36,356 nt of DNA from a virus: IMG/VR virus record IMGVR_UViG_3300045988_128427. One strand, written 5' to 3'. Below the pieces are notes generated by a model. The model had not been told where the DNA came from and did not search any database. It worked only from the letters and a program-made list of their open reading frames with translations. Position numbers and translations under genes: made by a program. Shown here piece by piece: positions 9,765-12,024 of this stretch; position 1 is the stretch's first letter, and every line of letters begins with the position of its first letter.

Positions 9765-11612
9765 ATGATGACACCAGATGAAAAAGGAACACTGCCACTT
9801 CGGACGGAAAAACTTTTTTATGATTTGCAGAACCGTATTTATGCGGACATTGTAAGAAGAATCAAAAAGACTGGTGAAATTACGAGTACGGCAGATTATC
9901 AGATAAATAAACTCCTATTGCTTGGAAATAGTACAGAGTTCATAGAAAAGGAATTGAAAGATCTTTTAAATGCTTCTTATCCAGAAATCTGGGCTTTGTA
10001 CGATAAAGTCTGTGACTGGGAATATGTCCGTAATAAAGACGCTTATGAGCAGATAAATGGCAATTTTGTACCACTGGAAGAAAATAAGACGGTCAGACGG
10101 TGGGCGGAAGCAATTGCAAAGCAGACGCAGGGTGAGATAAAGAATCTTACACGGTCGATGGGATTTACCGTACAAACCCGTGGCAAGAAAGTATTCACAC
10201 CACTGGCAACGTATTACCAGAAGTATTTAGATTCTGCCTGTATGGATATTGTAACAGGTTCGTTTGATTATAATACTGTTTTAAGAAGAGTCGTAAAAGA
10301 AATGACGGCATCCGGGCTACAAACAGTAGATTATGCGTCCGGATGGAGAAACCGTGCACCTGTGGCGGTAAGACGAGCCATTATGACAGGTGTTTCACAG
10401 TTGAGCAGTAAAATCAACGAGATGGTTGCAAAAGACCTGAAAACAGACAAATACGAAGTGACGTGGCATGGTGGACACCGACCGGAACACTGGTGGGGCG
10501 GTAAAGTTTACAGTTATGATGACCTTGTGAGAGTGTGCGAACTTGGAGAGGGAAGAGGTCTGTGTGGATGGAATTGCAAACATAGTTACTATGCCTTTGT
10601 TGATGGATTTTCGACGAGAACTTATACAGATGAGCAGTTAGAAGAGTTAGAAACAAAAGAGCAGGAACAGCATGAATACAAAGGCAAAAGTTACAATGCA
10701 TATCAAGCTTCACAGGCTCAACGGCAGATGGAAACGACTATGCGAGCACAGAGAGCGAATATCAAGAATCTGAAACAGGGAAATGCAGACTCGGATACCG
10801 TGATAGCAGCACAAGCAAGATATCTTAATACATTAAGTCAGTATAAAGACTTTTCGAAGAAAATGAAACTTCCGGAGCAGATGGAACGAGTGTACATGGA
10901 TGGACTGGGGCGAGTTGTTACTGATAATAAAATCAAAGGCATGTTTCCACAGAAAATGGTGGATAATATGCAGAAAGATTTGAACCAGTACAAGCGATAT
11001 AAAGAAGTGCTTGGAGAATCCGCTGGAACACTTGCGAACTTCGGGAAGATGAAATATAATGATAGTAAGAAATGGGGTGAATTGAATCACAGATATTCAG
11101 TTGTAAAACTTTACGATGTTGATTCAGGTAAAATGCCACGTGAGAAGATTTTTGAACTCGACCAGAAAGCGTTTCAGACAAAGACACAGCTGTTTACTGG
11201 AAATGCAAAAAGAAAAGGCAATATCGCCGTTATGGAATTGGATGGAAATATCAAGGTTGGAAATAGTCAAGTGCAAACTATAGATGACCCGAATTATATC
11301 AATTTCAAAGGAGATAAAGAGTCACTAGTATTGAAAACGAAAGTGCCGGAGTTTAAAACACTTTTTATCGGAACACATAATAGAGATGTGGATAGTGAAG
11401 CGAAACTTTTTGAATATGCAGCATCCATTTGCAAGGATGGAAAAGAACACGTATTAAATTTACTATCAGAACGTTGTATGTGCGAAAGCTGTCGAGGAGT
11501 TATGCAACAGTTTAAGAAAAAATATCCAAATGTTCAGGTTAATGCGGTATCAAATGCAAAGAAACAGGCAGAAAAAAATAAAAATAAGCCATGGACAGGA
11601 AGAAAGAGGTAG
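9765..11612 (+). CDS. MuF / SPP1 gp7-like head morphogenesis protein fused to a C-terminal deaminase-like toxin domain
   Basis: MuF-type core (WHGGHRPEHWWGGKVYSY...GLCGWNCKHSYYAF), a long charged linker, then a C-terminal domain with D543-S-E545 and C573-E-S-C576, 28 residues apart. Confidence 0.8.
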   Translation: MMTPDEKGTLPLRTEKLFYDLQNRIYADIVRRIKKTGEITSTADYQINKLLLLGNSTEFIEKELKDLLNASYPEIWALYDKVCDWEYVRNKDAYEQINGNFVPLEENKTVRRWAEAIAKQTQGEIKNLTRSMGFTVQTRGKKVFTPLATYYQKYLDSACMDIVTGSFDYNTVLRRVVKEMTASGLQTVDYASGWRNRAPVAVRRAIMTGVSQLSSKINEMVAKDLKTDKYEVTWHGGHRPEHWWGGKVYSYDDLVRVCELGEGRGLCGWNCKHSYYAFVDGFSTRTYTDEQLEELETKEQEQHEYKGKSYNAYQASQAQRQMETTMRAQRANIKNLKQGNADSDTVIAAQARYLNTLSQYKDFSKKMKLPEQMERVYMDGLGRVVTDNKIKGMFPQKMVDNMQKDLNQYKRYKEVLGESAGTLANFGKMKYNDSKKWGELNHRYSVVKLYDVDSGKMPREKIFELDQKAFQTKTQLFTGNAKRKGNIAVMELDGNIKVGNSQVQTIDDPNYINFKGDKESLVLKTKVPEFKTLFIGTHNRDVDSEAKLFEYAASICKDGKEHVLNLLSERCMCESCRGVMQQFKKKYPNVQVNAVSNAKKQAEKNKNKPWTGRKR

Positions 11613-11615
11613 AGT

Positions 11616-11972
11616 ATGAGAGCAGACGATGACCTTACATATCAGGAATATAAAGATAGTGTAGAATCTAATATGAGCTTAATAAAGCATTCTGGATGGA
11701 CACCGAGGCAGGTTACTGACTGGATGACAGAGGAAGATAATGAATTACTTGTCGGAACATCAGAAGCACTCTGGATTATTTCAATCGGTGCTTATGAGGT
11801 GGAGCATGATATTTTGGAAGAACGAGTATTAGAGCAGTTGTCTTATCATATTCCACGTTACGAGATGGGAAAATATAACGATATTACACCAGAAGAAAGA
11901 GAACTTTTAGAAAAGGATATTACATATATTCGTTCTAAAGTGGAACTTTGGAAGTTAAAAGACTATGATTAA
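11616..11972 (+). CDS. small acidic protein, candidate cognate immunity protein
   Basis: 118-aa ORF starting 4 nt after the toxin-fusion stop and followed by a strong terminator. It is not a standard head-module gene. The function is inferred from position only. Confidence 0.55.
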   Translation: MRADDDLTYQEYKDSVESNMSLIKHSGWTPRQVTDWMTEEDNELLVGTSEALWIISIGAYEVEHDILEERVLEQLSYHIPRYEMGKYNDITPEERELLEKDITYIRSKVELWKLKDYD

Positions 11973-11993
11973 CTGAGATTACGAGGTGTATTA

Positions 11994-12024
11994 CCACTAA
12001 CCGATACAGGTTGGTGGTTTTTTT
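11994..12024 (+). terminator. rho-independent terminator
   Basis: Stem ccactaacc / ggttggtgg with a 6-nt loop, followed by ttttttt. Confidence 0.75.

Follow-up and report, generated by a model that had tools for sequence, protein, structure and literature searches.

We analysed a 36,356-nucleotide (nt) stretch of viral DNA, IMG/VR record IMGVR_UViG_3300045988_128427 (the whole stretch is called the window below). It represents a temperate prophage of siphovirus type, whose host is a Lachnospiraceae-like Firmicute of the human gut. Two adjacent genes in its head module are highly likely to form a MuF polymorphic toxin locus, in which a deaminase makes up the toxin C-terminus and an immunity gene stands behind it. 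The first gene encodes a protein of 615 amino acids (aa) in which a MuF-type minor head protein is joined to a domain of the deaminase fold, and the second is a 118-aa acidic open reading frame (ORF) that very probably encodes the cognate immunity protein, as judged from gene adjacency and co-divergence in the deaminase loci sampled. An original prediction, made by a model from the letters of the window, had placed the 615-aa ORF, residue N486, the DSE and CESC motifs and the 118-aa ORF here, and all were present at those coordinates. Its central claim, that a MuF-type head protein is fused to a deaminase-fold toxin domain, was borne out by two Pfam matches and by the topology of a structural model. 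The fusion gene and its parts are as follows.

9765-11612, plus strand: gene for the 615-aa MuF2 (Phage_min_cap2)-deaminase fusion (PF06152 and PF14424)
9768-10853, plus strand: MuF-superfamily (MuF2) capsid/portal-targeting domain, aa 2-363 (PF06152, E 5.9e-89)
10914-11183, plus strand: pre-toxin linker, aa 384-473, conserved together with the deaminase
11184-11555, plus strand: deaminase domain of the BURPS668_1122 family (PF14424), aa 474-597 (71.2 bits against a cut-off of 29.6)
11382-11405, plus strand: helix-2 catalytic motif R540-D-V-D543-S-E545-A-K547 (RxxDxExK), which matches the clade motif
11481-11492, plus strand: helix-3 zinc motif C573-E-S-C576 (CxxC), 28 residues after E545

The original prediction had proposed comparing the C-terminus with profiles of the deaminase families. 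In this search the C-terminal 154 aa alone matched PF14424 with 71.2 bits and an E value of 1.3e-19, and the full protein matched with 66.2 bits, both far above the gathering cut-off, which makes a chance occurrence of the motifs untenable. The domain had been likened to the DddA or SCP1.201-type toxin deaminases; this resemblance was not upheld, as the domain fell into PF14424 and there was no PF14428 match even at E <= 1. SCP1.201 is a sister clade of BURPS668_1122, and also has an [HD]xEx[KQ] motif (Iyer 2011, PMC3239186). The aspartate of D543-S-E545 (nt 11391-11399), which had been taken for an uncharacterised variant of the usual ligand, turned out to be published: RxxDxExK defines the clade, which 'possesses a DxE motif' in place of CxE or HxE (Iyer 2011, PMC3239186).

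A profile search for relatives of the domain gave 1285 matches at E <= 1e-3, and conservation was counted in an alignment of 50 full-length relatives that are 14-57% identical overall. Four residues, N486, E545, C573 and C576, were invariant (50/50). Position 543 was Asp in 47 of the 50, Cys in two and His in one, R540 was kept in 46/50 and K547 in 49/50. The window sequence CESCRG has a Gly where the published 'CxxCxS' motif has Ser, and this position varies among the relatives (G in 27/50, S in 5/50). All 50 proteins carried PF14424, together with Phage_Mu_F in 30 and Phage_min_cap2 in 13, so that 43/50 had the fusion architecture. In this alignment, fusions of a MuF or min_cap2 protein with a deaminase are thus common, and they appear to be common in gut Firmicute prophages. 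The N-terminal part of the window protein also matched phrog_581, 'minor head protein' (E 1.5e-94), and PF06152 is the MuF2 group of the MuF superfamily (Jamet 2017, PMC5576092). The linker accompanies the deaminase in MuF1 fusions, in MuF2 fusions and in truncated chromosomal copies, and tblastn matches to the linker-deaminase region begin at aa 397-405.

We then modelled aa 462-615 using alignment-based AlphaFold2, which gave a mean pLDDT (predicted local distance difference test) of 95.1 and a pTM (predicted template-modelling score) of 0.90. The predicted chain runs through two helices, a β-hairpin, an insert of ~43 residues, a helix that starts at D-S-E, a strand, a helix that starts at CxxC, a strand and a short helix. 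Numbered within the model, the strands at 26-31 and 34-39 are followed by a helix at 83-95, a strand at 101-107 and a helix at 113-125. DxE starts the helix 83-95 and CxxC the helix 113-125, so that the predicted metal-ligand motifs lie at the N-termini of consecutive helices; as a prediction, the model is that of a deaminase core. The domain had been expected to start at about N486 (nt 11220). This residue is indeed conserved, but the fold begins ~20-25 residues earlier, with the two helices of the model at residues 463-483. Another check proposed with the original prediction, a Foldseek search of the PDB with a predicted structure, returned only proteins of the deaminase fold as top matches (APOBEC3A/B/C/G/H, APOBEC1, AID, a plant DYW domain, Bacillus subtilis guanine deaminase and TadA), although they were weak, the best having an E value of 0.018.

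The domain is probably a zinc-dependent cytosine deaminase acting on DNA, with single-stranded DNA as the likelier substrate by analogy with its relatives, as members of the PF14424 clade reportedly deaminate cytidine in single-stranded DNA in a Cas9-nickase base-editor reporter (bioRxiv 10.1101/2023.05.21.541555). The relevance to base editing, which had been put forward as new, was thus already on record for this clade.

The gene downstream and the structure that closes the unit are:

11616-11972, plus strand: 118-aa acidic ORF, the predicted immunity gene, on the basis of adjacency to deaminase homologs and co-divergence
11993-12025, plus strand: terminator-like hairpin (10-bp stem, 5 G-C) with a run of seven T

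Between the stop codon of the fusion gene and the start of the 118-aa ORF the distance is 4 nt. As had been stated, its product is acidic (isoelectric point 4.46, net charge -15), whereas toxin residues 474-615 are basic (isoelectric point 9.5, net charge +10). The AlphaFold2 model of the product consists of six helices and is all-α (pLDDT 91). The 118-aa protein had no Pfam match. Neither it nor the fusion obtained a meaningful match in NCBIfam, in PADLOC or among PDB sequences, and the PDB sequence search gave no match to any deaminase. A family of 308 proteins was collected with the 118-aa protein at E <= 0.01, and among the 120 listed none carried a precomputed Pfam annotation.

Related loci, designated here by L numbers, were reached through either of the two proteins. 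In every deaminase locus among them a partner homolog lay directly downstream of the deaminase homolog, 3-15 nt away or overlapping its 3' end; this was so for L011, L013, L014-L025 and the Clostridium tetani phage phiCT9441A. The identities to the window proteins, given as deaminase core and then partner, were:

L011: 65% and 67%
L024: 65% and 57%
L018/19: 59% and 51%
L013: 57% and 46%
L014-17: 50% and 32%
phiCT9441A: 48%, the partner being recognised by hhalign only (probability 91.5%, E 8.7e-7, 105 columns)

The deaminase and its partner therefore diverge together across the sampled loci. The settings of these pairs are varied: L013 lies in a myovirus-type head module, L014-17 encode standalone 164-aa deaminases (L014/15 on a bacterial chromosome), and L018-22 hold truncated MuF-deaminase remnants beside queA and spoIID. 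In L023 (1179-4918) a tandem array was found, in which a 579-aa MuF-deaminase with a 126-aa partner is followed by a 58-aa ORF, then by an orphan deaminase fragment of 125 aa with a second 126-aa partner, and finally by a 127-aa ORF, after which comes the scaffold gene. When deposited phages were searched with the 118-aa protein using tblastn, there was no match; the partner in phiCT9441A, annotated as the hypothetical protein phiCT9441A_41, is so remote a homolog that it took a profile comparison to recover it. In the Terrisporobacter phage TVCOM_ph1 the ORF downstream of the fusion is unrelated to the 118-aa family, as can be expected because immunity proteins are polymorphic.

The family may be remotely Imm3-like, and its membership is unproven. 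One member, P0085, aligned co-linearly with Imm3 (PF14425) over profile positions 5-113 of 119 with 15.3 bits (cut-off 25) and an E value of 0.02. The Imm3 profile was matched by two of 20 family members, and the window protein gave no match at E <= 1. Imm3 is an all-α Firmicute immunity family tied to BURPS668_1122 deaminases and found in polyimmunity loci (Zhang 2012). The 118-aa family shares with it a length of ~119 aa, the all-α character, the occurrence in Firmicutes, the position directly downstream of BURPS668_1122 deaminases and the presence of orphan copies among small ORFs, but differs in that its best match stays below the threshold and the window protein has none.

Two minor observations were made on these genes. 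Upstream of the truncated chromosomal pair in L018, positions 1617-1977 hold extra immunity-family fragments, apparently frameshifted and 42-43% identical. In the window the fusion and 118-aa ORFs share a reading frame (9765-11972) and are separated by TAG-AGT alone, which is likewise the case in L011 and not in L024; read-through of the TAG was considered and dropped, because the shared frame is absent in L024 and is probably coincidental.

The toxin part of the fusion is exchangeable, as a comparison with the closest sibling loci made clear.

10911-11598, plus strand: exchangeable C-terminal cassette, aa 383-611 (linker and deaminase), delimited by blastn against siblings L001-L005

The siblings have ~92% DNA identity to the window over 9765-10910 and ~94% from 11599 on, with 688 nt between showing no similarity in blastn; the protein alignment breaks straight after ...MERVYMDGLGR383. 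In place of the deaminase, L001-L005 (about 4308-4959) have a C-terminus with a HEATH (HExxH) motif, then a 55-aa zinc-ribbon ORF and then the 118-aa gene. The HExxH C-termini of L001-L005 and of L028/L029 (about 5180-5820) matched the putative metallopeptidase family DUF6782 weakly, with E values from 0.003 to 0.0009 that are below the cut-off, and a zinc-ribbon ORF of 55-63 aa with four Cys always comes next. This pair is a candidate for a second toxin/immunity cassette in the same slot. Altogether, three alternative C-termini were seen among close min_cap2 homologs, and a separate small ORF goes with each of them; those 72-75% identical to the window protein have either the HExxH or a DUF6883 module, and no 118-aa homolog. 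One of them, the 75% identical homolog of L027 (1-1830), shares the window linker up to aa 444 and continues with DUF6883 (E 1.1e-15) and a 56-aa ORF, which places a second recombination junction inside the linker.

Copies of the immunity-family gene without a full toxin were also found. In L006-L010 (e.g. L006 2352-5360) an orphan 119-aa gene, 85% identical, lies in an island of many small ORFs that includes a standalone PF15644 Gln_amidase toxin domain, with a serine recombinase nearby. Directly upstream of the orphan gene is a 48-aa remnant of the deaminase (aa 568-615, 75% identity, without DxE), and the island looks like a polyimmunity or orphan-module island. In metagenomes, the clusters of the orphan-type immunity protein were far larger, reaching 346 and 315 members, than those of the deaminase, which had at most 11.

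The two-gene unit ends in a hairpin at 11993-12018 that is followed by TTTTTTT, within a 140-nt intergenic region (11973-12112) with a folding z of -5.68; an Rfam search of 11500-12400 gave no family. The hairpin with its T-run, originally read as a terminator, is real. The hairpin is kept in the sibling L001, and comparable hairpin/T-runs occur 3' of the immunity-family gene in L013, L016, L018 and L023/24, that is, in all of the related loci checked. By this comparison the terminator is a recurrent end-piece of the module, and not peculiar to the window phage.

On this basis we propose how the locus may work. The MuF2 N-terminus would be a normal portal-associated minor capsid protein, to which the exchangeable cassette would add the pre-toxin linker and a compact zinc deaminase with D543, E545, C573 and C576 as predicted catalytic residues. 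The acidic six-helix protein would most likely bind the basic deaminase 1:1, probably blocking its nucleic-acid-binding face or its active site, and would protect the producer cell, and any lysogen expressing the partner, from self-intoxication. Because the terminator closes the two-gene unit, the toxin C-terminus, the immunity gene and the terminator may move together as a mobile module resembling a moron. By way of its MuF domain the fusion could be packaged in a few copies, which would reach a new cell along with the injected phage DNA or be released at lysis, and we give this packaging and delivery an even chance. In a recipient, the domain would deaminate cytosines of DNA, probably single-stranded, and so poison or mutagenize cells that lack the immunity gene. 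It is improbable that the outcome differs, with a very compact (~125-150 aa) Asp-liganded deaminase being injected with the phage DNA to edit double-stranded DNA or RNA or to cause sub-lethal hypermutation. Were this compact injected deaminase real, selection by phage-delivered deaminases acting on the whole community would account for the abundance of orphan immunity genes in gut metagenomes.

Several results weigh against a toxin locus of this kind. The Foldseek matches of the deaminase model have template-modelling scores of about 0.4-0.47 besides their weak E values. The BURPS668_1122 clade has no solved structure, so the Asp zinc ligand is a prediction, and the convergence of D543, E545, C573 and C576 on one site was judged from model topology only. 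The 118-aa protein resembles no PDB fold in Foldseek (best E 1.4) and has no above-threshold match to a curated immunity family. In the siblings L001-L005 the 118-aa gene is retained, 97% identical, in the absence of any deaminase. Promoter-like sites are at chance level (36 found, against 34.5 expected from shuffles), and therefore expression of the immunity gene in lysogeny is unsupported; an internal promoter for this gene, tried as a candidate, was dropped for the same reason. Finally, packaging and delivery of MuF toxins are hypothetical in the literature (PMC11699363).

The retention of the 118-aa ORF in the siblings, its place just before the scaffold gene and the missing match to a curated immunity family would fit a protein that assists head function or assembly, or else a moron with no link to the toxin, instead of an immunity protein. 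We find this scarcely credible, and rejected the head accessory on the chromosomal, tandem and remnant contexts described above. Family members follow deaminases in chromosomes, including the standalone 164-aa enzymes, and occur in tandem arrays; the divergence of the partner tracks that of the deaminase, the orphans of L006-L010 retain a 3' remnant of the deaminase immediately upstream, and close min_cap2 homologs with other C-termini have different small ORFs at this place and not the 118-aa gene. An orphan gene such as that of the siblings is what is usually left behind once the old toxin tip has been displaced by a new toxin/immunity module. It is very improbable that the deaminase-like domain is catalytically dead and only extends the head protein, as a structural part or to bind nucleic acid. 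In favour of a dead domain, a zinc ligand such as Asp is unusual in the deaminase fold, some eukaryotic (Perkinsus) members of the clade are apparently inactive (Iyer 2011, PMC3239186), and many members are truncated after helix 3. However, DxE is the norm of the clade, and its strict conservation with the Glu and both Cys across such divergent relatives implies purifying selection on the active site; in addition, a dedicated partner gene consistently accompanies the domain, and PF14424 members are reported to be active in the base-editor reporter.

A different role for an active, capsid-delivered enzyme is less improbable, namely that of an infection or host-takeover factor and not of an interbacterial toxin, with the partner protecting phage replication late in infection. 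Such a factor would be injected together with the DNA and would act on nucleic acids or nucleotides of the host, so as to counter defences, shut off the host or mutagenize prophages already resident there. The fusion to a portal-associated internal head protein, the lack of a detectable promoter of its own for a gene in the late operon and the late co-transcription of both genes, deduced from their position, are consistent with such a factor, and the biological role of MuF toxins is stated as unknown in the literature (PMC11699363). Nevertheless, we consider it rather unlikely. Away from head modules, the same cassette turns up both in standalone pairs on chromosomes (L014-17) and in prophage remnants (L018-22); the C-terminus is freely swapped for unrelated domains; and orphan immunity genes with toxin remnants (L006-10) are a signature of toxin/immunity conflict. 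We retain the polymorphic toxin locus as our interpretation of these two genes.

The window locus is a new, intact example of an architecture that is known. The architecture, the Asp motif and the idea of capsid delivery were all published in 2011, so that the delivery of a deaminase by the capsid, presented as new in the original prediction, had in fact been proposed: 'terminase based' delivery was given for the BURPS668_1122 clade, and capsid packaging was suggested for a C. perfringens deaminase toxin encoded in a terminase/capsid neighbourhood (Iyer 2011, PMC3239186). MuF phage-head polymorphic toxins were formalised later (Zhang 2012, Biol Direct 7:18), and 89% of them are followed by an ORF of <150 aa (Zhang 2012; Jamet 2017, PMC5576092). 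The main text and available supplements of Jamet 2017 (BMC Biol 15:75, PMC5576092) contain no occurrence of deaminase or PF14424. The MuF toxins studied experimentally are the Apk2 (p)ppApp synthetases and the ADP-ribosyltransferase Bxa (PMC11699363), and we found no experimental study of a MuF-deaminase in the literature on MuF and deaminase toxins. Two isolated phages have the order portal, MuF-deaminase, small ORF and scaffold, with an unannotated PF14424 domain in a 'minor head protein' gene: C. tetani phage phiCT9441A (NC_029022.1, 20319-22335, L031; E 1e-20) and Terrisporobacter phage TVCOM_ph1 (PP197245.1, 2870-4673, L032; E 1e-21).

Compared with the BURPS668_1122 clade (PF14424; Iyer 2011 NAR 39:9473), the window domain scores above the cut-off, has RxxDxExK and a CxxC at the start of helix 3, and likewise forms the C-terminal toxin part of a probable polymorphic toxin, a small predicted immunity gene standing downstream. 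It differs in having CESCRG where the published motif is CxxCxS, and in a partner that the Imm2, Imm3 and SUKH models do not recognise. With the MuF polymorphic toxins the locus shares the MuF-superfamily N-terminus, the slot between the ORF at the portal position and the scaffold gene, the setting in a gut Firmicute prophage, the exchangeable C-terminal toxin, an ORF of <150 aa directly downstream and orphan or extra immunity genes in related loci; the difference is that the toxin of the window is a predicted nucleic-acid deaminase, and not a nuclease, metallopeptidase, ADP-ribosyltransferase or alarmone synthetase. The characterised toxin deaminases belong to other clades (BaDTF1, SCP1.201; BaDTF2, DYW-like; BaDTF3, Pput_2613). 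DddA (SCP1.201), SsdA (DYW-like) and DddB (Pput_2613) also combine the deaminase fold and a C-terminal toxin position with an adjacent small immunity protein, here a predicted one, but they fall into other Pfam families and are delivered by the type VI secretion system and not by a phage head protein.

The locus leaves current concepts unchanged. As neither a characterised MuF-deaminase nor a structure from the clade was found in the literature, it is of value mainly as a way into experiments. It is a clean and intact example with a high-confidence model, a well-supported predicted immunity partner, and sibling phages that provide natural 'swap' controls. It may thus serve as a starting point for asking whether MuF toxins are packaged and delivered, whether Asp can be the zinc ligand of a deaminase and whether such a small domain can act as a base-editor scaffold.

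The neighbouring head genes place the fusion in its usual slot. The order is terminase, 452-aa ORF, MuF gene, 118-aa ORF, scaffold and capsid, with the following features outside the toxin unit:

7080-8396, plus strand: large terminase gene (PF03237/PF04466)
8400-9758, plus strand: 452-aa ORF at the portal position, identified from its place between the terminase and MuF genes
12113-12676, plus strand: scaffolding protein gene (PF06810 Phage_scaffold, E 1e-35), the downstream edge of the insertion slot

The 452-aa ORF has no Pfam match, and its identity as a portal gene rests on position; a recognised portal gene fills the same slot in L023-L025 and phiCT9441A. The rest of the window contains an ERF recombinase, a replisome organiser, a methylase, a transfer RNA (tRNA), tail genes, an endolysin (Amidase_3), an integrase and a PemK-like toxin. 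The prophage assignment is based on the integrase at 28699-29913 and on a near-identical gene in a bacterial genome: a 476-kb contig of Firmicutes bacterium OM04-13BH, a cultured gut isolate, encodes a MuF-deaminase that is 99% identical and a partner that is 100% identical to those of the window. Related head proteins were found in Lachnospiraceae, Faecalimonas and Mediterraneibacter. When the head-tail region was compared with deposited phages using megablast, the sole similarity was to the tape-measure gene of C. perfringens phages.

Some further observations concern other parts of the window. A tRNA gene lies at 6403-6476 on the plus strand (43.6 bits), just upstream of the packaging module, and is followed by a strong terminator-like hairpin at 6572-6599 on the same strand (12 bp, 6 G-C). 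This hairpin falls inside the called start of the ORF at 6542-7105, and therefore the start of this probable small-terminase gene is likely to be downstream, at about M33. The tape-measure gene is split, with the ORF at 16620-17294 covering positions 1-133 of 201 of the PhageMin_Tail profile and the ORF at 18508-22050 starting with positions 156-200. Between the two halves are an HNH-endonuclease ORF (17409-18245) and, at 18206-18405, a match to a group I intron that covers its full length but, with 29.7 bits and an E value of 3e-5, stays below the cut-off of 50. On the plus strand, the tape-measure gene (16620-22050) is thus probably interrupted by a group I intron that carries a homing endonuclease. 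The lysogeny region on the minus strand (28699-32292) comprises the tyrosine integrase (28699-29913), a 396-aa ORF without a Pfam match (30014-31204) and a 252-aa ORF (31534-32292) with a PemK/MazF-like toxin domain at aa 69-169. A tail-fibre-like protein encoded at 24646-26289 on the plus strand combines collagen triple-helix repeats (E 3e-33) with two carbohydrate-binding modules of the CBM_5_12 type.

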